Positions 1,958 to 30,131 of a DNA stretch of 30,131 nucleotides are shown here, in pieces (positions within the stretch are counted from its first letter, which is position 1; the number at the start of each line of letters is the position of its first letter). Where the stretch lies: the IMG/VR virus record IMGVR_UViG_2923292180_000002, one strand, 5' to 3'. Origin of the DNA: a virus. Its lineage: Duplodnaviria; Heunggongvirae; Uroviricota; Caudoviricetes. The notes beneath the pieces are model-generated. The model ran no database searches and was not told the DNA's origin. It saw only the letters and a list, made by a program, of their open reading frames with translations. The position numbers and the translations under genes are program-made.

Positions 1958-4405
1958 TTAACCGTCATGCATCATGCTGGCACGGGCGCGCGCACGTTTA
2001 TCCCGCTCGTATTTTTCGAGCGCATCCTGTAACTGGCGGTCAAGCTGTGTCCCCGGCGCAGTACCACCCGTCAGGCTGATGTGATATTCGTTTTTACTCT
2101 GGTCCACATAAGAGCGGCCAGCCGGTGCCGTGACCGGCTGATAAGCCTGATAGCCTGCATAAGAGCTGGTCGCCGGAATATAACCACCGCTGCCATACGT
2201 GGCGGCTTGAGTTCTGGCGGCGGTCTGGTCAAGTGTGTCTGACTCTTTGTTGATAACACCGAGTTTTTCCAGTACCCAGTCAATACCGCTGCGCAGTTTG
2301 TTGAACGCATTAAGCGGCAGCATCAGCGCGTCAGCCAGTGCCTGCCCGAACATGACCCCCGTGTCACGGCAACGGTTCAGGGTATCCTGAGTGGCTTTGA
2401 CCGGGGCAATCAGGTTTTTAAACCACTGCCACGCGGCCTGTAACTTTTCACCCAGCCAGTCAAACACCGGCTTAAGTGGCGTGAACAGTTCCCCCACCGG
2501 CGCAAATGCCACTTTCAGCCCTTCAACCACACCGCCAAAGAATGCGCTGACAGGCTCCCAGTATTTACGGATAAGCAACGCCCCGGCGACAATTGCGGCC
2601 ACCACGACCACAACCGGCCAGCTAATAGCCCCGATGGCGGTCATAACAGCACTGCCAACCGTCGTGAAGACTGCCCCCATTGCGCCTGCTGCCGCGATGA
2701 TGGCATTGATGCCGGTGATAACCGGCCAGGCTACGAGGCCAATGGCACCGATGATGCCAGTAAGCGCCAGCGCGCCACCGGCAATGATGCCGATGGTTGA
2801 CGCCAGTGATTTGTTTTTCTGGATCCAGCCGTCGAGTTTTAACACATACTTTGTGGCCGTCTGCGTGAGCTTACGCAGCGCGCCTTCCTGCTGGTCAAAC
2901 AGGTCAGTCCCCACCGCCTCATAAGCGGACTGAAACTCCTTAAAGTCACCGCCCAGGTTGTCCTGCATGATATTTACCAGCTCGGCGGTCTTCCCGTCCG
3001 AGGCTTTAAACGCAGCGGTCAGTTTGTCCAGCTTTCCGGTTGAGGCGGCAGTCATCAGCACGGCGGCGGCTGAGCTGGCCTCCTCCCCGAAAATGGTTTT
3101 CATGTATTCAGCCTGCTGGGCAGTACCGAGCCGGTTTTTCTCAAAACTGGCCTGCATTTCTTTCAGAATGGTAAATACTGGCCGGGTGTTTCCCTTGCTG
3201 TCTGAGGTTTTCACACCAAGCTCTTTCAGTGCATCCCATGCTTTTCCCGTCGGTGCCTGCAGACGGCTTAACACGGCACGGCTTCCCGTCCCCGCCATTG
3301 AACCGGTAATTTTTGCATCATGCAGCGCCCCGACCATTGCGGCGGTTTCTTCAATGCTGACACCGGCATTTTTTGCCACAGGTGCGGCATAGGTCAGCGC
3401 ATCGCTCATACCGTCAAAATCGGCGGCGGTTTTGTTCATCGTCATGGAGAGAACATCCCCGATATGAGCGACCTTATCGTTTGAAAGCTGAAAGGCGGAT
3501 TTCATCCCCATCAGCAGGGCGGCGTTTTCTTCCATCGTGCGGCGGTTCGCCAGCGCCATATTCAGCGTGACCGGCGTTGCCGCCTGAATGGCATCAACAT
3601 CCCCACCCGCTTTCGCGATGATTATCTGTGCACCGGCCGCATCATCCGCCGAGGCGGCGGTATTGTCACCGAGCTGGCGCGCCTGTTTGCGTAGTGCGGT
3701 CATTTCGGCGGAGTCTTTTGCCACTCCGAGCACGGCCTGCAATTCTGAGTTTTTCTGCGCAAACTCATAACCGGGCATCAGCAACTTAACTCCGGCCATC
3801 GTTCCCGCCGCCGCAATCCCCACACCGGCAGCGCCCACTGAGGCCATATTTCCGGCCAGTTCCTTTCCGGCCTGATAACGCTGTTTTACTGCGTTAAGTT
3901 TTGCCTGTTGTGCACTGACACGCGCCAGTGCGTCACGCTGACGGTTAAGCTGTGCGGTGGTTTCACTGATACGGTTTTTCAGTCCCTGCTCATCATGTGC
4001 AAGATTGCGGGTATTAATTCCCACAGCGGCCAGTTCCCGCTGCTGGCGTTTAACGGAATCCGTCAGGCGGTTATATTTCGCCTGTAAGTCCTCCGCCGCA
4101 CGCTTTGCGGATTCCAGCACTTTCGCCTGAGCACGTGTCGGACGTTCGGTATTTTTAAACTGTGTGGCAAGGGCTTCGGCCTCCTGCCGAGCCTTTTCAA
4201 GTGCATGACCAGTCACGGCAAGCTGTGCACTGGTCTTGCGGAATCCCTCAATACGGGATGCCTGACCGTTCAGCTCGCGCAGTGATTTTTGTGTTTCCCG
4301 GATATCCCCCGACAGCGATTTGCTCGCTGTGCGGATGGATTTAAACGGGCGGGATGCCTGGTCAACAGCCCTGAGCAATACCTGTAATTTTACATTGTTA
4401 CTCAT
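1958..4405 (-). CDS. T: Tail tape measure protein T
   Basis: 815-aa ORF with a coiled-coil N-terminus, Ala/Gly-rich hydrophobic central segments and C-terminal region, typical of a tape measure; located downstream of E/E'. Confidence 0.9.
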   Translation of the reverse strand: MSNNVKLQVLLRAVDQASRPFKSIRTASKSLSGDIRETQKSLRELNGQASRIEGFRKTSAQLAVTGHALEKARQEAEALATQFKNTERPTRAQAKVLESAKRAAEDLQAKYNRLTDSVKRQQRELAAVGINTRNLAHDEQGLKNRISETTAQLNRQRDALARVSAQQAKLNAVKQRYQAGKELAGNMASVGAAGVGIAAAGTMAGVKLLMPGYEFAQKNSELQAVLGVAKDSAEMTALRKQARQLGDNTAASADDAAGAQIIIAKAGGDVDAIQAATPVTLNMALANRRTMEENAALLMGMKSAFQLSNDKVAHIGDVLSMTMNKTAADFDGMSDALTYAAPVAKNAGVSIEETAAMVGALHDAKITGSMAGTGSRAVLSRLQAPTGKAWDALKELGVKTSDSKGNTRPVFTILKEMQASFEKNRLGTAQQAEYMKTIFGEEASSAAAVLMTAASTGKLDKLTAAFKASDGKTAELVNIMQDNLGGDFKEFQSAYEAVGTDLFDQQEGALRKLTQTATKYVLKLDGWIQKNKSLASTIGIIAGGALALTGIIGAIGLVAWPVITGINAIIAAAGAMGAVFTTVGSAVMTAIGAISWPVVVVVAAIVAGALLIRKYWEPVSAFFGGVVEGLKVAFAPVGELFTPLKPVFDWLGEKLQAAWQWFKNLIAPVKATQDTLNRCRDTGVMFGQALADALMLPLNAFNKLRSGIDWVLEKLGVINKESDTLDQTAARTQAATYGSGGYIPATSSYAGYQAYQPVTAPAGRSYVDQSKNEYHISLTGGTAPGTQLDRQLQDALEKYERDKRARARASMMHDG

Positions 4406-4825
4406 TCGTGTTTCCGCTTCGCCGGAGCGCCTTTTCGCGCCATGTGATGAGTTCGGTCAGGCTCATGGGATACAGTTCTGATGGCGGCCAGTGAAATATC
4501 ACTGCCACATCCGCCATCAGGTCATCGACCGACAGATTTTTCGGAAACGTCACTGCACCGAGTTCGGCGACAAAAAACCGACCACCTTACCGGCCAGCGC
4601 CACAAGGTCAGGCAGTTCCAGCGCGGCGACTTCCTGCTCGGTCAGCATCGGTGCCGTCATGCGCGGCAGCACCTTAATCAGTGCATCGACTTCGGAGTTC
4701 GCGACCGCTGCCAGACTGACACCGCGCAGCGTCCCGGCATTGGGTTTCATCAGCGTGACCTGTTCGATAACCTGCTCACCACGTTTGACCGGATTGTCCA
4801 GGGTAATGACATTTTCTTTGTTCAT
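4398..4825 (-). CDS. E+E': Tail assembly chaperone E+E' made by programmed -1 ribosomal frameshift
   Basis: Minus-strand mRNA reads GGT TTT TTG, giving the slippery heptamer T TTT TTG (plus coordinates 4571..4577) inside E. I translated the -1 frame by hand: it stays open (...GFFVAELGAVTFPKNLSVDDLMADVAVIFHWPPSELYPMSLTELITWREKALRRSGNTNE) until TAA at 4398..4400, overlapping the T start. Analogous to lambda G/GT and P2 E/E'. Confidence 0.75.
4550..4825 (-). CDS. E: Tail assembly chaperone E
   Basis: 91-aa ORF ending ...KVVGFLSPNSVQ; directly upstream of T as in P2. Confidence 0.88.
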   Translation of the reverse strand: MNKENVITLDNPVKRGEQVIEQVTLMKPNAGTLRGVSLAAVANSEVDALIKVLPRMTAPMLTEQEVAALELPDLVALAGKVVGFLSPNSVQ

Positions 4826-4881: not shown

Positions 4882-5400
4882 TCACAGGCCGATATTGCGG
4901 CGGTGTTGCTCCAGCCGGTCGACGCCGTTCACCTTCTCAATCATGTTGATGGTGTCAATTTCGACCAGCTCCTTACCGTCCATCGTCAGCCGGAAATAGG
5001 TGCAGACCACGGAGATTTTCGACTCGGTGTCTTCTCCCTGTTTACCCTCGCCGGTGTCGATTTCTTTCTGACGTCCACGCATGACCACTTCAACGGCCAC
5101 CGTTTCGCCGGTATCGTCACGCTGGTAAGAGCCTGCAAAACGAATCGGCACAGCATCCACACCGGTTGCGGCGTAAAGCTCCCAGATAACCGAATCCGGG
5201 AAGCCCCCGAGCGACCACTCCATTGACAGCGCATCGTCATCAAGGCCGAGGTCTACCGGTGCGCTGCCGTTCATCCCCGCACCGCGATAGTTTTCAAGCT
5301 TACGGGTCAGTTTTGGCAGCGTGACGGACTTCGCGACGCCCTGATAGCTGTAGCCGTTCAGAAAGACGTTCATTAACTTGAGTTTGCGCGGCATTGCCAT
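4882..5400 (-). CDS. FII: Tail tube protein FII
   Basis: 172-aa ORF, P2 gpFII size and position after FI. Confidence 0.88.
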   Translation of the reverse strand: MAMPRKLKLMNVFLNGYSYQGVAKSVTLPKLTRKLENYRGAGMNGSAPVDLGLDDDALSMEWSLGGFPDSVIWELYAATGVDAVPIRFAGSYQRDDTGETVAVEVVMRGRQKEIDTGEGKQGEDTESKISVVCTYFRLTMDGKELVEIDTINMIEKVNGVDRLEQHRRNIGL

Positions 5401-5412
5401 CGGTCAGGCTCC

Positions 5413-6603
5413 TTAATTGCTGTTAACCGAGGTGACCAGATTTGCCAGGTATTTATCGGTAATACGCTGGCGCAGGGTCAGGTTTTCAAGAGGAGGCACC
5501 GGTGTATAGTCGTAGTCGATATACAGTTTTCCGGCCTTGAGGGTTTCCGCATCGTTGGATTCTTCGCTGAACCAGCATGAGCCATCCACGATATAGCCGT
5601 TTGTTTTCAGCTCACGGAATTTGGCATTGATGCCGTCAACGATGTCGCGAATCAGCGTTGCGGTGATGGGCTTGTCCACCGCCCACATGTGCGCCTCAGC
5701 TATCGTGTCGGCCAGCACCTGCGCGGTACGGGTGTAGTTTTCAAAGAGGAACAGCGGGTCATCAGAGCAGGTACGGTTACCCCAGAATCGGAAACCGTCG
5801 CGGCGAATCAGCGTAGTGACACCTGACTCGTTAAGCAGGTCAGCATCGGTGCCGGACTCCTGCAAATCCCAGAATACAGATGCGCTGATGCCGGTAACAC
5901 CGTTTACCCCGACGTTGGACAGCGTTTTATGCCAGCCCTGCTCCTGGTCGATTTTAGCGCGCAGACCCAGCGCACGGGCGGTGGCATACGCGGTGGCGGT
6001 GGTACTGGTGACCGTATCCCATGCGAGGAAATCCGGCCAGATGACCATCAGCTCACGCTGGCTGAAATTCTGGCGGTAGGCTTTCACCTCGGAAATGGTC
6101 TTACAGCCCCATGCGCTGATATATCCGAAAGCACGCAGCTTCTGACAGACTGATGCCAGTGCAACAGCCACCTCTTTGGTATCCAGTCCCGGCACGCCGA
6201 GAATACGCGGTTTAACACCGGTTACCGACTCCGCCGCCAGCAGGGCTTTCAGTCCGGTGTACTGACCGTTTTCGTCGGTGGTGCCGATGATATTGGAAAC
6301 GGTCTGCGCGAGTTTCGTTTCCTCGTCGTCGCCGGTGCCGTCTTCCACACGTACGACAACGGTGACCGGTTTTGACTGGTCGGCGATGGCCTGCAACGAT
6401 GCCGCCAGCGTGCCTTTTTTACCGGCCTTTGCAATTGCACTCTGCACATTGGTAATCAGCACCGGTTTATTGAGGGGGAAGGTTTCCGCATCCGCATCGC
6501 TGGCCGTGCAGACCATGCCGACAATGGCAGTGGATACGGTGGAAATGACGCGGGTGCCGTCGTTAATCTCCAGCACCTGCACGCCGTGATGATAGTCACT
6601 CAT
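5413..6603 (-). CDS. FI: Contractile tail sheath protein FI
   Basis: 396-aa ORF, P2 gpFI size; first gene of the FI-FII-E-T-U-D operon. Confidence 0.9.
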   Translation of the reverse strand: MSDYHHGVQVLEINDGTRVISTVSTAIVGMVCTASDADAETFPLNKPVLITNVQSAIAKAGKKGTLAASLQAIADQSKPVTVVVRVEDGTGDDEETKLAQTVSNIIGTTDENGQYTGLKALLAAESVTGVKPRILGVPGLDTKEVAVALASVCQKLRAFGYISAWGCKTISEVKAYRQNFSQRELMVIWPDFLAWDTVTSTTATAYATARALGLRAKIDQEQGWHKTLSNVGVNGVTGISASVFWDLQESGTDADLLNESGVTTLIRRDGFRFWGNRTCSDDPLFLFENYTRTAQVLADTIAEAHMWAVDKPITATLIRDIVDGINAKFRELKTNGYIVDGSCWFSEESNDAETLKAGKLYIDYDYTPVPPLENLTLRQRITDKYLANLVTSVNSN

Positions 6604-6662
6604 CCGTTTAACTCCGTGGTTAATGGGTGAGTGGTATTTTCAGTTGTGCCGGAGATGTCAGG

Positions 6663-6845
6663 CTATTTGTCCCGGTTGGCTAAGGGATGACACAATTTAT
6701 TCTTTGTCGCTGATGAGGGAAATTTTTTATAGAGCGTGGACAGGCCAATATCAAAAATCAGCTCACATCCTGCGCACTCCAGCGCGTTACGCTGCAATTC
6801 CGTATTCTGGTCATTTGTTGACACGCGGACATAGCCAATAAGCAT
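6663..6845 (-). pseudogene. Truncated DNA invertase (Pin/Gin/Hin serine recombinase family), N-terminal remnant only
   Basis: 60-codon ORF begins MLIGYVRVSTNDQNTELQRNALECAGCELIF, the conserved N-terminus of Din-family invertases including the catalytic Ser region (VRVST). After about residue 31 the sequence is unrelated, and only 60 bp separate it from the FI start, so the catalytic and HTH domains are absent. Confidence 0.72.
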
Positions 6846-6902
6846 GATGGATCCCCTGAATAAAAACCGGGGATGATGCCAGTTAGCCGTAATCTCTGCA
6901 TT

Positions 6903-6926
6903 TTCTTAAACGTTGGTTTGGGAGAA
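6903..6926. repeat. Left crossover (gix/hix-like) site of invertible tail fibre segment
   Basis: ttcttaaacgttggtttgggagaa: an imperfect palindrome of the AAACC-NN-GGTTT type, whose core cttctcccaaaccaa recurs in inverted orientation at 8758..8772. Confidence 0.6.
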
Positions 6927-7247
6927 GCGGCAAAACGGAATGTGGGAACAGGGGAAAATCAGATACCTGATATGTCAGCTTATTCATCAGGATCTGGCTG
7001 GCAAAAATTGCCTGATGGTTCAATTGAACAGTGGGGAAGAATTAATTTCCCGAATAACGCCGCGGCGGTATCTACAAATGTGACTTTCACCATTCCTTTT
7101 ACGCAGGAGCCAGACGTAGTGATTGTATATGACGGCGGTTTTGGTGGTGGGAATATGTGGGGCGCAACTAACTGGACGAAAACAGGTTTCGTTGCTCATT
7201 GTAACTATGGCTTTGAAGGTGGAGCCTTCTACGCGAAAGGGCGTTAA
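6903..7247 (+). CDS. Alternative tail fibre C-terminal cassette (H variable part, currently silent orientation)
   Basis: Plus-strand frame reads FLNVGLGEAAKRNVGTGENQIPDMS... to TAA at 7245..7247. It shares the in-frame GLGE junction with H at the crossover site. The ORF-track start at 6873 lies before the crossover site and is probably not a real start. Confidence 0.6.
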   Translation, partial: FLNVGLGEAAKRNVGTGENQIPDMSAYSSGSGWQKLPDGSIEQWGRINFPNNAAAVSTNVTFTIPFTQEPDVVIVYDGGFGGGNMWGATNWTKTGFVAHCNYGFEGGAFYAKGR

Positions 7248-7249
7248 TT

Positions 7250-7690
7250 ATGAAATATTTGTATGTTGATAATCTGGCGTACCCTTATGCCCTCCAGTCT
7301 GTTTACGCTGCAAAAGGCCAATGGCCCGAAGGTAAAGGCGTGGATATAGACGAAGCTATTTTCAGGGAATATTTCCATGATACGCCGCCTGACGGTAAGT
7401 ACAGAATTACCGGAGACGATGGAATGCCAGCATGGGCAGATGTTCCACCGCCAACACGTGAAGAACAAATTGCATCAGCCGAAACTAAAAAGCAGCAATT
7501 GATTAATCAGGCCAACGATTATATGAACAGTAGACAATGGGCTGGTAAAGCGGCTATTGGTCGTCTGAAAGGTGAGGAACTGGCGCAATATAATTTGTGG
7601 CTGGATTATCTGGACGCACTGGAGCTGGTCGATACTTCCAGTGCACCAGATATTGAATGGCCTACTCCTCCGGCAGTTCAGGCCAGATGA
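7250..7690 (+). CDS. Tail fibre assembly protein (alternative chaperone, Tfa family)
   Basis: 146-aa ORF starting 2 nt after the cassette stop. Its C-terminus ...LWLDYLDALELVDTSSAPDIEWPTPP parallels the G C-terminus ...AVLDYIDAVTATDISTAPDVIWPELP. Convergent with G and overlapping its 3' end. Confidence 0.8.
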   Translation: MKYLYVDNLAYPYALQSVYAAKGQWPEGKGVDIDEAIFREYFHDTPPDGKYRITGDDGMPAWADVPPPTREEQIASAETKKQQLINQANDYMNSRQWAGKAAIGRLKGEELAQYNLWLDYLDALELVDTSSAPDIEWPTPPAVQAR

Positions 7691-8264
7691 CATCCGGCGC
7701 GGTGCTGATATCTGTTGCCGTCACCGCGTCAATGTAATCCAGCACAGCGTTAAGCCGGGTTGTTTCTGCCTGCGTCAGTTTCCGCCCGGCCTGTAATTTC
7801 AGTTGAATCAGACTAATGGAAGCCATTGCAGTATCAATCAGTGACTGACGCTGTGCTTCTGCCGCGTCTACTGCGGCGCGATGCTGTGCCTCAGTATCGG
7901 TCACCCATTTCTCACCATCCCATTTATCGTATGGCGTTAATGGGGCGATAGTGGTTGTATTTTCGGGGTAATCACCCGGAGTTGTGATTTCTTTGGTGTC
8001 TCCCGTTTCGGTGTTATAGACGATTTCACCGCGATGGTCTGGCACATATTCCCATGAGTTTAAATCTGCCGAACGGCAGATTGCATAACCAGCCTTATGT
8101 ATACCAGGTTCATCCAGACAGGAATATGCCGGGATACCAACACCAACGGCAAGATATTCATTTGAAGTGGAAATATATTCCCGAGTTTCACCATCATAGC
8201 TATAGACGGTAATATTCCCCGCCTTCGTGGCAATAAGCTCGCTATTTAATACAGCGTTATCCAT
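7662..8264 (-). CDS. G: Tail fibre assembly protein G
   Basis: 200-aa ORF directly downstream of H with a conserved Tfa C-terminal motif. Confidence 0.85.
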   Translation of the reverse strand: MDNAVLNSELIATKAGNITVYSYDGETREYISTSNEYLAVGVGIPAYSCLDEPGIHKAGYAICRSADLNSWEYVPDHRGEIVYNTETGDTKEITTPGDYPENTTTIAPLTPYDKWDGEKWVTDTEAQHRAAVDAAEAQRQSLIDTAMASISLIQLKLQAGRKLTQAETTRLNAVLDYIDAVTATDISTAPDVIWPELPEE

Positions 8265-9598
8265 TATGCAGCTCTCACAATATAATTAAATGACGTATTA
8301 CGTGGTCGTACTGATATCCATGCACTATAAAAACCGTCTTCTGCTGTTCTCTGCGTTCCCGTAATGGAGTTATCAGACGAAGCTGGAACATAGTTACTGC
8401 TGTCGCCAGCTTTAGAATTAGCAGGTATCCCGCTTGTTTGTACTTTATCGGCGGAAGCAAATGCTATCCCCACCTTGACAGAGGTTGTTGTATCAACCCC
8501 GTAATAATCCTGTAACGCTGTACGAATAAAAGTTGCATCCTGACCACTGAGTAGTGATCGTCCACTGTCTACACCGCGTCCATCATCCCAGCCACGAATA
8601 AACTCACCGCGTAAATCAGGCAATTTATTTGTCGGGTAAGCCTTTGCCAGTTCCGGGTATTCTTCAGCAGAAAAAGCTGCACCATTGCATTTCAACCAGC
8701 CTGTCGGTGGTGTAGCTGAAGGCCACGGAACAGGCACACCAACCGGTAATGCTGAACCTTCTCCCAAACCAAGGTATGCGAGAAGACCAGCCACATCCTT
8801 TCCACTCAAATGAGTCAGCGTCTCATCCAGTGGCTGCTTACCTGACAGCGCATTGTTAATGGTGGTACTGAATTTCGGGTCATTGTTAATGGCTGCGGCA
8901 ATTTCTTTCAGTGTGTCCAGCGTGGCTGGCGCACCGTTAATCAGAGCGGTAATAGCGGCCTGAACAAACGCAGTGGTCGCAATCCGCGTGGTGTTATTTC
9001 CTGCGGCAGGCGTCGGCGCTTTTGGTTCTCCGGTAAATGTCGGATTATGTTTCTGCGCATACTGGGTATGAGGATCCTGTGCGGCAATGTGGTTTCTCAT
9101 CTGGTCATCCACATACAGCCTTAATTCCAGGACTTCATCATCCACGTATTTACGGGTCGCCAGTACCACCGACGGGTCGATTTTCAGCGTGATAGCTTCG
9201 GTATTCGTGACAACCAGAATCATGCGGATAGTCTGGGTACGACCACTGCCTTCCTGCAACTGCGGTTTGTACGTTTCCGGGCAGTTCGCCACCGCAATGA
9301 GTACGCCTTCATCATCATAAAGCCCAATCTCACGGATCCAGAATCCGCCCTCGTTCTCAGGGATGATTTGCTCCGCAATAATCTGGCTCTGGTTGTTCGG
9401 GTCAACACTCAGAAGATTCAGCGGCGCGATGCGTTTCTGGTTAATCAGTTTTGTCTGTGCCGGGTCTGGTGTCGGCAAGACACCATTCGCATCACCAACG
9501 GCCATTTGCGTCAGATTCAGCTTACTGCCGAGCATCGTCGCGTTAGCCAGCCGTGCTGCGCCCTGATTAGTCAGAATGGCGTAGTATTTCACTGTCAT
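8264..9598 (-). CDS. H: Tail fibre protein H (constant N-terminus plus currently expressed variable C-terminus with tail-collar-like domain)
   Basis: 444-aa ORF with a P2 gpH-like N-terminus (MTVKYYAILTNQGAARLANA...). The C-terminal part carries a phage tail collar-like motif (PWPSATPPTGWLKCNGAAFSAEEYPELAKAY...LPDLRGEFIRGWD). Confidence 0.88.
   Translation of the reverse strand: MTVKYYAILTNQGAARLANATMLGSKLNLTQMAVGDANGVLPTPDPAQTKLINQKRIAPLNLLSVDPNNQSQIIAEQIIPENEGGFWIREIGLYDDEGVLIAVANCPETYKPQLQEGSGRTQTIRMILVVTNTEAITLKIDPSVVLATRKYVDDEVLELRLYVDDQMRNHIAAQDPHTQYAQKHNPTFTGEPKAPTPAAGNNTTRIATTAFVQAAITALINGAPATLDTLKEIAAAINNDPKFSTTINNALSGKQPLDETLTHLSGKDVAGLLAYLGLGEGSALPVGVPVPWPSATPPTGWLKCNGAAFSAEEYPELAKAYPTNKLPDLRGEFIRGWDDGRGVDSGRSLLSGQDATFIRTALQDYYGVDTTTSVKVGIAFASADKVQTSGIPANSKAGDSSNYVPASSDNSITGTQRTAEDGFYSAWISVRPRNTSFNYIVRAA
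8759..8784. repeat. Right crossover (gix/hix-like) site inside H
   Basis: ttctcccaaaccaaggtatgcgagaa; its first 14 nt are the reverse complement of 6913..6926 (with the preceding c, the shared core is 15 bp, 8758..8772). Lies in the H reading frame at ...LAYLGLGEG... Confidence 0.55.
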
Positions 9599-21682: not shown

Positions 21683-22837
21683 TTACGAATTCAAACTCAA
21701 CTCTGTTTGACTCTTTTGAACATTAATAGTTTTACCAGTAAGGACATCCAAAACCCCTGCAGCAACAGCCTGCGCCAATTTACAAGGCACAGCATTCCCT
21801 ATCTGACGCCAAATTGACGAATTTTTCCCCACAAAGACATAATTACTCGGGAATGTTTGAATCAAAAGAGCCTCATCTATCGTTAGTCGACGTAAACGAC
21901 TAGGTACATCGTGCATATCTTTTGGCTCACCACCATTCATTAGATGATTATGATAAGTCTCAACATAACTTGTTGAGCCATCATAAAGGTGTTCTTCATC
22001 AATAATTGGTGTCCTATTCCCCCCCATAGAAGCAGCTATAGTTGAAGCATACCCATTCGGGTTAATTGGTCTTCCCTGCCCGTTAAACATCATTCCCGCG
22101 TAAGGTGACTTCCGTAATACTGGCTTAGCAGCATTTGTAATCCTTGCATTACAGACTCTTGAATTGTTTGGATTACCCGCTCGCCCTAAAGGCCGAATAA
22201 TCTCACCAACTGTTGGCGAAAGATATTGGTATTTTTTTATCGCCGCCTCAACTCGTTTCACATCATTTTCGGAACGAAACCCTATAAAAAACATACGTTC
22301 CCTATTCTGAGGAACGCCAAAATCTTTAGAATTCAGCACCAGCAAGGCTGAACGATAGCCTGACTTTTCAGCCATCTTAAACAGTTCACACCTAACTGGT
22401 TCAAATTTGGACAACTGTGCTAAAGCCTTAACATTCTCCATAACAAAGCATTCTGGTTGAATTATATCCACCGCCCGCATGAATGACATAACCAGCTTAC
22501 TACGTGGATCATGAGCGTCCATTTTCCCTGCCACAGAAAATCCTTGGCATGGAGGCCCACCAAAAACACAACCTATATTTTTCAGCCCAGACAATTCACT
22601 TAGCATCTCATCAATATCACCACAAAAAACAGGTGATTCATGATTAAGCTTAAATGTATCACATGCATCCTTATCTATATCATTGGCCCAAACTGTTCGG
22701 AACCCGGCATTAGAGAAACCGACATCCATCCCTCCTGCCCCAGTAAATAAGCTCACAGCTGAAATTTTGTTCACTTCTTTAGCACCAATTATTCGATTTT
22801 GGAATAAAACCAATGATAGGTAAGGATCGACACACAA
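21683..22837 (-). CDS. DNA (cytosine-5)-methyltransferase
   Basis: 384-aa ORF with C5-MTase motifs in order: FTGAGGMDVGF (I), GGPPCQGFS (IV, catalytic PC), ENV (VI), QNRERMFFIG (VIII), a variable target-recognition region, and GNAVP (X). The annotated start is a TTG; an in-frame GTG 15 codons downstream is an alternative. Region is AT-rich compared with the phage backbone. Confidence 0.85.
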   Translation of the reverse strand: MCVDPYLSLVLFQNRIIGAKEVNKISAVSLFTGAGGMDVGFSNAGFRTVWANDIDKDACDTFKLNHESPVFCGDIDEMLSELSGLKNIGCVFGGPPCQGFSVAGKMDAHDPRSKLVMSFMRAVDIIQPECFVMENVKALAQLSKFEPVRCELFKMAEKSGYRSALLVLNSKDFGVPQNRERMFFIGFRSENDVKRVEAAIKKYQYLSPTVGEIIRPLGRAGNPNNSRVCNARITNAAKPVLRKSPYAGMMFNGQGRPINPNGYASTIAASMGGNRTPIIDEEHLYDGSTSYVETYHNHLMNGGEPKDMHDVPSRLRRLTIDEALLIQTFPSNYVFVGKNSSIWRQIGNAVPCKLAQAVAAGVLDVLTGKTINVQKSQTELSLNS

Positions 22838-22857
22838 TCAATCACCTTCTAAACCAC

Positions 22858-23127
22858 ATGGCAAAACGACAACCAACTATACATGATCATAGATACAGGT
22901 GCCTAGTCCAGCTTCTCACCAAACTACGCAAAGAAGCTTCTCTTTCGCAGTCAGAATTGGCCATTTTTCTAGGATTATCACAATCAGATATATCTAAAAT
23001 CGAAAGCTTTGAAAGGCGATTAGATGCTTTAGAACTATTTGAATTATTAGAGGTGGTTGCAAGCCGATTAGGTCTACCAATGGATATCTTACTAAAGGAC
23101 ACCTATGAAAGTATTAGTAAATCATGA
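22858..23127 (+). CDS. HTH (XRE-family) regulator, putative R-M controller (C) protein
   Basis: Helix-turn-helix LSQSELAIFLGLSQSDISKIE. Divergent from the methyltransferase and overlapping the start of the downstream nuclease-like gene by 23 nt, the classic C-R arrangement. Start could instead be the upstream ATG at 22813. Confidence 0.6.
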   Translation: MAKRQPTIHDHRYRCLVQLLTKLRKEASLSQSELAIFLGLSQSDISKIESFERRLDALELFELLEVVASRLGLPMDILLKDTYESISKS

Positions 23128-24160
23128 GCAAGCCTATAATGTAATTATAAATGCAATCAACGATGCAAAAAAATTAACTGATTACAAAACAAATAATCAA
23201 TGGGTCTCCATTCAAAATGTAATTTTAGGCACCCACCTTACATACAGATATATACTTATTACTGGTTTACTTGCAAAAGCAACAGACCCTAGAGTAAACC
23301 CTCTGGCTTTACAAGCTAATGCCCCCGTAGACGGAGCCTATGATGCAAGAAGTTTATGTCATTCGGTAATAGTAGGCAAAGTAGAAGGCCCATTTTTAGA
23401 GGGTAAGTTAGGCGCATCAAATGAGCCATTTCTAAATAAACCAGCTCGTTACATGCTCCACTCCTCTGATAACCCTGTGCGCAGAGGAAATGATAAGGTT
23501 TTACAACAACTTTCAATTGATATATTACATGCAGCAACAACCCAAACCTTAGCTTATGAAATGCTTGTTATTGCATTATATTTTACCCTACAGCGAACCA
23601 ATAGAGTTATAACGCCGAACTCAATTAATTTTGATTTCCATAAGATTATTTATAATATTATATCTCATCCTTGTGATGGAGAAACATGCGCGATTGCTGC
23701 CGCAATTTCGTTACATTTATTAGGTGAACAAAGAGGATGGATAATAAAAGCACATCCCGTCAATCAGGCCGGTAGCTCCTCAAAAGAGATACTGGACATA
23801 GATGTATATCATGATGATATAGTTTTCCTTTCTATAGAAGTGAAAGACAAACCATTCAATTATCAAGATGTTAATCACGCCGTTTCAAAAGCATCTGCAT
23901 CCGGGATTTCAAAAGTTATCTTCCTTAAAGGGCCAAGAGCAACAAACTTAGATATTGATGAGTCTCTTGCGATTGAGAACGCTGCGACAAAAGGTGTTTC
24001 ACTAAGCTTTAGTGACGTCATGACATTCACAACAACATGTTATGCGTTATCGCCACTATTAAGTAATGACAGAATAATAGATTTCATAAATAACACTTTA
24101 AAAGACATCAGAGCTAAAGATAGCACTATAGAATACATACAATCCATATTTAAAAATTAA
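23105..24160 (+). CDS. Putative restriction endonuclease / PD-(D/E)xK-like nuclease (uncharacterised family)
   Basis: 351-aa ORF, strongly AT-rich, with a candidate PD-(D/E)xK motif in ILDIDVYHDDIVFLSIEVKDK (D...E-V-K). Linked to the C-like gene and the divergent C5-MTase. No family recognised by eye. Confidence 0.5.
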   Translation: MKVLVNHEQAYNVIINAINDAKKLTDYKTNNQWVSIQNVILGTHLTYRYILITGLLAKATDPRVNPLALQANAPVDGAYDARSLCHSVIVGKVEGPFLEGKLGASNEPFLNKPARYMLHSSDNPVRRGNDKVLQQLSIDILHAATTQTLAYEMLVIALYFTLQRTNRVITPNSINFDFHKIIYNIISHPCDGETCAIAAAISLHLLGEQRGWIIKAHPVNQAGSSSKEILDIDVYHDDIVFLSIEVKDKPFNYQDVNHAVSKASASGISKVIFLKGPRATNLDIDESLAIENAATKGVSLSFSDVMTFTTTCYALSPLLSNDRIIDFINNTLKDIRAKDSTIEYIQSIFKN

Positions 24161-29135: not shown

Positions 29136-30131
29136 ATGTCTATTAAAAAGCTCGATGATGGTCGTTATGAAGTGGACGTCAGACCGCAGGGTGCAGATGG
29201 AAAACGTATCAGGCGGAAATTTAAAACTAAAGGTGAAGCTCAAGCATTCGAACGTCATGTACTGGTTAACTACCACAACAAAGAGTGGTTGGAGAAACCA
29301 GCCGACCGCCGAACTCTTACAGAGTTGTTAGGCAGATGGTGGATATATCACGGAAAATCACATGAGCGTGGAGATATTGAACGGGGGCGTTTAACGACAA
29401 TAATCGCCAAATTTGCAGAAATGGGAGTGTCCAGAGCTGACCAGCTAACAAAGAAAACGATAACTGATTATCGCGTTGTAATGATGAACGATGGTCTGAA
29501 ACCAGCCAGCGTAAATCGACATCTGGCAATAATGAGCGGGATGTTCACCAAGTTAATTGACGCCGGTGAATACCACTCTCACAACCCGTTCCGTGAGATT
29601 AAACGGTTACGTGAAGCTGTTACGGAAATGGCTTTTTTGTCCAGTGAAGAGATTACGCGGCTGTTATCCATGCTTGATGGTGATGAATTAAATGCAACTC
29701 TGGTCTGCCTTTCTACTGGTGGACGCTGGAGTGAAGTGTCTAATTTAAAAGCTGAACACATCATTAACCAGATGGTTACGTTTATGAAAACTAAAAACGG
29801 AAAACGCAGGACAATTCCCGTTTCGCAGGACCTGATTAAACGGATCAAGACCAAAAATTCAGGCAGGCTTTTTAATGCCAGTTACTACAAAGTGCGTAAC
29901 GCTCTCAGGGAAGTAAAACCCGATTTACCTGACGGACAAGCAGTACATGTTTTGAGGCATACATTTGCCACACATTTTATAATGAATGGAGGTAACATAA
30001 TCACATTGCAGCGCATCCTGGGTCATTCTAACATTCAGCAAACTATGACCTACGCACACTTTGCACCGGATTTCTTACAAGATGCTGTGACTCTTAACCC
30101 GGTGTCAGGAATGTCCATAATGCGTCCATAA
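29136..30131 (+). CDS. int: Tyrosine integrase
   Basis: 331-aa ORF with the catalytic region ...VLRHTFATHF...LGHSNIQQTMTYAHF (R-H-R-Y type); downstream of C as in P2. Stop codon is the last 3 nt of the window. Confidence 0.9.
   Translation: MSIKKLDDGRYEVDVRPQGADGKRIRRKFKTKGEAQAFERHVLVNYHNKEWLEKPADRRTLTELLGRWWIYHGKSHERGDIERGRLTTIIAKFAEMGVSRADQLTKKTITDYRVVMMNDGLKPASVNRHLAIMSGMFTKLIDAGEYHSHNPFREIKRLREAVTEMAFLSSEEITRLLSMLDGDELNATLVCLSTGGRWSEVSNLKAEHIINQMVTFMKTKNGKRRTIPVSQDLIKRIKTKNSGRLFNASYYKVRNALREVKPDLPDGQAVHVLRHTFATHFIMNGGNIITLQRILGHSNIQQTMTYAHFAPDFLQDAVTLNPVSGMSIMRP

Follow-up and report, generated by a model that had tools for sequence, protein, structure and literature searches.

The P2-like prophage described here carries a tail-fibre switch that has lost its own recombinase, and comparison with related Escherichia coli prophages indicates that switches bearing the same loss have gone on inverting. 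We consider it probable that a repeat-mediated, in-frame deletion converted a PinE-like invertase gene into a pseudogene, that the cis-acting elements of the system were kept, and that the orphan segment now inverts only with the help of a Din invertase acting in trans. A 411-bp deletion between two in-frame 12-bp direct repeats, likely produced by slippage or short-homology recombination, removed residues 32-168 of the invertase and left both crossover sites, the stretch equivalent to the Fis enhancer and the FI late promoter in place. The switch would then turn only in cells in which another prophage or a plasmid provides a compatible Din-family invertase, and the segment would be frozen in a host devoid of any such enzyme.

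The prophage and its invertible segment

The window, i.e., the whole 30,131-nt stretch of DNA that was analysed, corresponds to a complete P2-like (Peduovirus) prophage, with ogr (1-282) at one end, the integrase gene (29136-30131) at the other and host DNA absent. It exhibits the gene order ogr-D-U-T-E/E'-FII-FI ... H-I-J-W-V, together with replication gene A, the integrase gene and a pF promoter, as expected for this group. Genes D (301-1464), U (1464-1943), T (1958-4405), E/E' (4398-4825), FII (4882-5400) and FI (5413-6603) all lie on the minus strand, FI being the tail sheath gene and the first gene of the F operon. Between FI and the tail-fibre gene H, we find a short ORF of 60 codons (6663-6845, minus strand), hereafter called the stub and located upstream of FI, and a segment with a 27-nt inverted repeat at its ends (6901-6927 and 8758-8784). 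In its present form, H (8264-9598, minus strand; 444 aa) joins a constant N-terminal part to a collar-domain C-terminus that is encoded within the segment. The switch region of the window had no match at 99% identity or more among complete E. coli genomes. The prophage also harbours a type II restriction-modification cargo module (21683-24160). A C5 cytosine methylase is encoded on its minus strand (21683-22837), and the plus strand holds a small controller-like HTH ORF (22813-23127) and a restriction endonuclease of the SacI family (23105-24160).

The segment is delimited by two 26-bp crossover sites in inverted orientation. The invertase-proximal site, TTCTCCCAAACC AA CGTTTAAGAAAA (6901-6926, minus strand), is identical at 25 of 26 bases to the site adjoining pinE in the e14 element, and the distal one, TTCTCCCAAACC AA GGTATGCGAGAA (8759-8784, plus strand), is located within H. 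Their inner half-sites are perfect inverted repeats of each other and the core AA/TT is common to both. The 1858 bp between the two site cores (6914-8771) have coding content on both strands: a silent alternative tail-fibre C-terminus with a gp53-like C domain, unjoined to H in the present orientation (6914-7247, plus strand), the tail-fibre assembly chaperone paired with it (7250-7690, plus strand; Caudo_TAP, 3.7e-32), the chaperone paired with the expressed C-terminus (7662-8264, minus strand; Caudo_TAP, 4.5e-32), and the C-terminal part of H. The 3' ends of the two convergent assembly genes share 29 bp (7662-7690), and an 18-nt inverted repeat near this overlap (7600-7617 / 7726-7743) probably reflects the homologous C-terminal coding ends of the two genes.

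An invertase gene with an internal deletion

The stub starts with an ATG and was characterized from the ORF list and by Pfam, phmmer and DNA alignment. The first-pass annotation had described it as a Pin/Gin/Hin-type N-terminus of about 31 residues followed by unrelated sequence and a stop some 60 bp from the start of FI. The first and last of these statements agree with our data: residues 1-37 match residues 1-37 of Gin (phmmer against PDB 4m6f, E = 3.3e-18), Pfam Resolvase scores 27.6 bits (cut-off 23.3), although only over profile positions 2-42 of 145, and 59 nt separate the stop from the start codon of FI at 6603. The supposedly unrelated sequence turned out to be the 3' end of the gene itself. 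A second, C-terminal phmmer match links stub residues 26-45 to Gin residues 163-182, and the end of the Hin DNA-binding domain (1hcr) is matched by stub residues 27-51 only, so that homology to Din invertases is found at both ends of the ORF. Colinearity with an intact allele points in the same direction, as the DNA alignment with the 197-aa allele of strain LR9-2 contains a single gap of exactly 411 bp, or 137 codons. The native N-terminus, with the nucleophile Ser9, accounts for codons 1-31 of the stub, and the native C-terminal residues 169-197 for codons 32-60. From the junction through the stop codon and across the 59-nt spacer to FI, the sequence is native and identical to the intact gene, and outside the gap the window and the intact allele differ by three single bases. 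By homology, then, the stub is the remnant of a PinE-like (Pin/Gin/Hin-type) serine DNA invertase. Relatives in RefSeq are annotated as a partial 'recombinase family protein' pseudogene; our alignments correct the reading of the locus from a truncation followed by foreign DNA to an in-frame internal deletion. That the rest of the invertase might be encoded in another frame, which the first-pass annotation had raised against its own proposal, can be rejected, since an ORF of that kind is absent and the alignment has one plain gap.

With residues 32-168, the protein has lost most of the catalytic domain, the oligomerization helix (helix E) and, from the DNA-binding domain, the first two helices. 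The resolvase domain is thus reduced to its first 31 residues with Ser9, and just the last helix of the helix-turn-helix is left (Pfam HTH_7, 14.2 bits, under the cut-off of 23.8, at profile positions 30-44 of 45). Judged from these missing parts, the product would be incapable of DNA recombination, in line with the earlier view that the invertase is dead, and the segment of the window has no functional resident invertase beside it.

The junction coincides with the lone retained copy of a 12-bp direct repeat, GCTGATTTTTGA (6751-6762, minus strand), as established by alignment with intact and stub alleles. Intact alleles carry this repeat at coding nt 84-95 and again at 495-506, and the two copies bound the 411-bp gap. 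The junction had previously been placed at about 6752, which is correct, the retained copy being the interval of ambiguity. Since both copies are read in the same frame (within ELIFE and ALIFD) and lie 411 bp apart, the deletion is in frame. Such an arrangement is likely the signature of slippage or of a deletion through short homology. Both perfect copies are present in 12 of the 20 intact alleles that we sampled, and the same junction was found in the three stub alleles aligned (that of the window and two others). Most related E. coli prophages match the region as two pieces that span about 411 bp more than the query, and a few match it as one piece. An assembly artefact is ruled out by the identical junction in 24 complete genomes. 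A different partial invertase was noticed in E. coli BL21 (862198-862335), the match being limited to nt 1-138 of the 411-bp core query, at 92% identity; decayed Din invertases are therefore not peculiar to the stub allele.

Elements retained at both ends of the gene

The first-pass annotation had suggested that the remaining 5' portion might still carry a Fis-dependent recombinational enhancer. The hin enhancer measures 65 bp and is located about 100 bp from hixL; its two Fis sites are separated by 47 bp and have the motifs ATTTA and TAATG between them (PMC3798978). We aligned five sequences in all, among them the window, genuine hin (from Salmonella enterica subsp. diarizonae, adjoining fljB), Mu gin and K-12 pinE. 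All five are colinear between the crossover site and about coding nt 95, the coding region being without indels, and in real hin the two motifs fall at the D-L-Q-R-N codons. The corresponding region of the window (6760-6825, minus strand) can be delimited from this alignment and from the geometry of hin (PMC3798978). It contains two G...C-bounded 15-mers that are candidate Fis cores, GTGTCAACAAATGAC (6810-6824, minus strand; 14 of 15 positions as in gin) and GCGCAGGATGTGAGC (6761-6775, minus strand; 13 of 15), 49 bp apart compared with the 47 bp published for hin (PMC3798978), in registers that were assigned from geometry and alignment and may be off by 1-2 bp. In the register that we assigned, the centre of the proximal candidate core is 96.5 bp from that of the crossover site. 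Because one copy of the repeat has been kept, native sequence extends 10 bp past the distal candidate core. The enhancer-equivalent stretch, i.e., the first 86 or so nt of the coding sequence, thus appears to be entirely retained, in agreement with the earlier suggestion. By analogy with hin and gin, Fis may be expected to bind this region, and inversion of the segment may depend on it.

At the other end of the gene, the deletion approaches the promoter of the F operon. In the annotated P2 record, the transcription start of this operon is located 24-26 nt, and the activator-binding site 69-97 nt, upstream of FI. Alignment of the window with P2 across the promoter stretch is free of gaps, and the annotated positions can therefore be transferred: the start is predicted at 6627-6629 (minus strand) and the site bound by the activator Ogr at 6672-6700 (minus strand), with half-sites TTGTG and TTAGCCAACCGG identical to those of P2. 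These positions contradict the proposal that the junction marks the beginning of the FI late promoter region. The junction lies at least 51 bp further upstream than the activator site, the stretch between the two is invertase coding sequence, and the predicted activator site itself falls inside the last codons of the invertase ORF. As the intact ORF also reaches this site, the 3' end of the gene and the promoter of the tail operon overlap. The intact P2-like ORF (197 aa) is longer than PinE by 13 codons at its 3' end, which reach into the pF activator-binding site (6663-6700 in the window). The deletion would appear to spare an essential element at either end of the gene, the enhancer equivalent on the 5' side and the activator site of the FI promoter on the 3' side.

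One might suppose that the 60-aa product has a function of its own, acting for instance as a small regulator or dominant-negative peptide, and has been retained for that reason. The ORF is indeed in frame, its start, ribosome-binding context and stop are kept, and exactly the same protein occurs on 434 contigs, all from E. coli wherever the organism is named. However, a deletion between two in-frame repeats spaced by 411 bp is bound to be in frame, and what remains of the protein is one beta-strand/loop with Ser9 and one helix whose HTH_7 score is below threshold. Retention of the ORF is more simply attributed to the enhancer at its 5' end and the FI promoter at its 3' end, and we regard a function of the peptide as extremely unlikely.

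Inversion of the segment after the deletion

The clearest evidence that the segments of stub-bearing prophages still invert comes from the AR_0137/Y5-type lineage, which we compared in 18 complete genomes and one further genome. All 17 complete genomes that are at least 99.8% identical over 2468 bp (covering the site core, the stub, FI and FII) carry the deletion, and the nearest intact alleles are 98.8% identical; the deletion therefore predates this lineage. The flanks of the segment are at least 99.8% identical among its members (100% in most), and the 1195-bp segment itself is 100% identical with the exception of TL-14, which has a 3-bp indel. Despite this near identity, the segment is found in both orientations, one in 12 genomes (encoding an H of 431 aa) and the other in 7 (an H of 370 aa). 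Both orientations occur in both tape-measure sub-lineages, which implies at least two independent inversions. The same phenomenon was observed with other cassettes: the 1858-bp segment of the window is present, 100% identical and inverted, in another stub-bearing locus (L005), and the stub-bearing loci L003 and L010 form a further flipped pair. L006 and L007, also a flipped pair, carry the 1195-bp cassette.

The position of the exchange could be determined with precision in the 1195-bp cassette (L006/L007 lineage; e.g. L007:8738-9932), which is shorter and has a single gene for tail-fibre assembly. Two of the 12 positions differ between its inner half-sites, TTCTCCCAAACC and TTCTCCAAATCC. With a change of orientation, they swap ends exactly and the outer half-sites stay where they are, which confines the exchange point to 4-5 bp around the central dinucleotide. 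Serine invertases cut at the central dinucleotide. With just 4-6 bp of uninterrupted identity between the arms at the exchange point, homologous recombination is implausible. The simplest reading of these genomic comparisons is that stub-bearing segments undergo site-specific inversion by an invertase supplied in trans.

These data bear directly on the earlier opinion that the switch is 'probably locked'. In its strict form, this explanation holds that the deletion froze the segment, each prophage keeping the orientation that it had when its invertase died. The resident invertase is certainly non-functional, no difference in orientation was detected within clonal sets (SRY149/157/206, TL-14/800 and AF43/AF51), and one strain of the minority orientation, Y5, lacks e14. 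A frozen segment is nevertheless hard to reconcile with the presence of both orientations where the deletion is fixed, in flanks and segments that are essentially identical and with half-sites exchanged exactly, or with the flipped pairs of two other segment types. We thus consider locking improbable and favour the alternative, also raised in the first-pass annotation, that the segment could be flipped in trans, which the site-exact exchange in a lineage having only the stub supports. The uniformity of clonal sets may be compatible with such inversion if flipping is infrequent or if consensus assemblies hide minority forms.

Possible sources of the invertase

Potential donors of an invertase are common in the host species. 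Of 5426 complete E. coli genomes, 4558 contain blastn homologues of the deleted core, at a median of 2 places each. PinE would be a natural candidate, as its crossover site is near-identical to the proximal site of the window. However, e14 is absent from icd in E. coli Y5 (NZ_CP013483.1, 3122000-3255000 walked), a stub-bearing strain of the minority orientation, which excludes PinE for that strain. Either another invertase flipped the segment in Y5 or the flip predates this host. Y5 also carries, adjoining potB, a lambdoid prophage with iss and fragments of tail-fibre assembly genes.

Relation to known inversion systems

Invertible tail-fibre segments served by Din invertases are textbook examples, with the G segment and Gin of Mu, the C segment and Cin of P1, and the P segment and Pin of e14. 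Action in trans is classical, with complementation among hin, gin, cin and pin, and the phenomenon has been known since the 1980s. The system that most resembles that of the window is the P segment of e14 with PinE in E. coli K-12, in which the invertase gene likewise adjoins a segment with alternative tail-fibre C-termini and chaperones. The intact P2-like allele and PinE share 86% protein identity, the proximal sites 25 of 26 bases, and the 5' coding regions are colinear. Unlike PinE, the invertase of the window lacks residues 32-168, and its ORF, placed between G and FI in a P2-like prophage, extends into the pF promoter. The two inverted 26-bp sites of the window are also found in Mu G/Gin and in the H segment/Hin system of Salmonella. 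There, the enhancer falls within the first 90 or so nt of the invertase gene, at a distance of about 100 bp from the proximal site (PMC3798978), and homology predicts an equivalent in the window. Unlike these two systems, the window is devoid of a resident enzyme, and a role for Fis would be predicted from the same homology.

Inversion by an enzyme from another element has experimental precedents. PinQ of the Qin prophage inverts the P segment of e14 (PMC12529663), and Fin of Fels-2 acts on the H segment of Salmonella (Kutsukake 2006, as cited in PMC4272514). In these cases, as in the complementation among hin, gin, cin and pin, the invertase comes from another element in the same cell, as we propose here. 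These cases were established experimentally, mostly with laboratory mutants, whereas inversion of the kind represented by the window is deduced from natural genomes in which the invertase was naturally deleted. P2-like prophages of EPEC E2348/69 have Din-type invertible tail-fibre loci that vary within cultures, and the passages of the study consulted mention no invertase defect (PMC4272514), unlike the deleted invertase of the window.

What is new in our work is a specific, widespread and naturally deleted allele, together with population evidence for continued inversion of the cassettes; the mechanism was already known, and the addition to this long-known phenomenon is conceptually modest. 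It nonetheless provides natural, population-level evidence that a phage host-range switch works after the loss of its own recombinase. The switch would outlast its recombinase by virtue of the interchangeability of Din invertases and of their frequent occurrence in E. coli. One practical consequence is that a partial recombinase adjoining a tail-fibre cassette should not be read as the sign of a fixed tail-fibre type: isolates that share a prophage may differ in orientation, and hence in the host range predicted for an induced phage or tailocin-like particle.

Spread and origin of the stub allele

We searched for the deletion with a 40-nt probe spanning the junction, each side of which is too short to seed on intact alleles. 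It was found in 24 of 5426 complete E. coli genomes. Stub-bearing prophages occupy at least three chromosomal neighbourhoods (fieF-pfkA, a U32 peptidase/ParDE locus and pflB-focA), carry at least six different invertible cassettes, and have the stub allele on backbones that are about 2% apart.

This diversity raises the question of whether the deletion occurred once or several times. The 12-bp repeat could yield the same 411-bp deletion repeatedly from intact parents that were themselves flipping, in which case no inversion in trans would be needed. The event is indeed repeat-mediated, most of the intact alleles sampled hold both copies, and several deletions would account for the divergent backbones and the multiple segment types. 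Nevertheless, within about 150 bp of the junction, one haplotype is common to all 13 distinct stub haplotypes, and just 4 of the 20 intact alleles have it; this favours a single origin of the deletion followed by recombination onto other backbones. Recurrence would moreover require at least two identical deletions in the AR_0137/Y5-type lineage, one per orientation, where every one of the 17 members is deleted and no intact allele comes nearer than 98.8%, and likewise in the two other flipped segment types. We therefore judge recurrent deletion to be very unlikely as a substitute for inversion in trans.

Taking inversion in trans and a single origin together, one can speculate further that the stub is more than debris and represents the minimal tolerated form of the gene, the 5' 95 or so nt with the enhancer and the 3' 40 or so nt with the activator site being obligatory. 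A one-time deletion would then have spread by recombination to at least six tail-fibre cassettes and at least three chromosomal sites, and would persist as an 'invertase-free' host-range switch that borrows the invertases of co-resident prophages. This extended proposal is tentative and, in our opinion, rather doubtful as a whole; if true, it would mean that host-range variation in the phage is coupled to the mobile elements of its host.

Among 50,697 phage records searched, the junction was absent from isolated phages, and one prophage-type contig of IMG/VR carries it. In one stub-bearing locus, L041 (NZ_OZ501671.1, 4487698-4494737), an ISEc12 element (IS21 family) occupies the position taken in the other lineage members by FII and the tail genes downstream of it, and this copy of the prophage is therefore defective.
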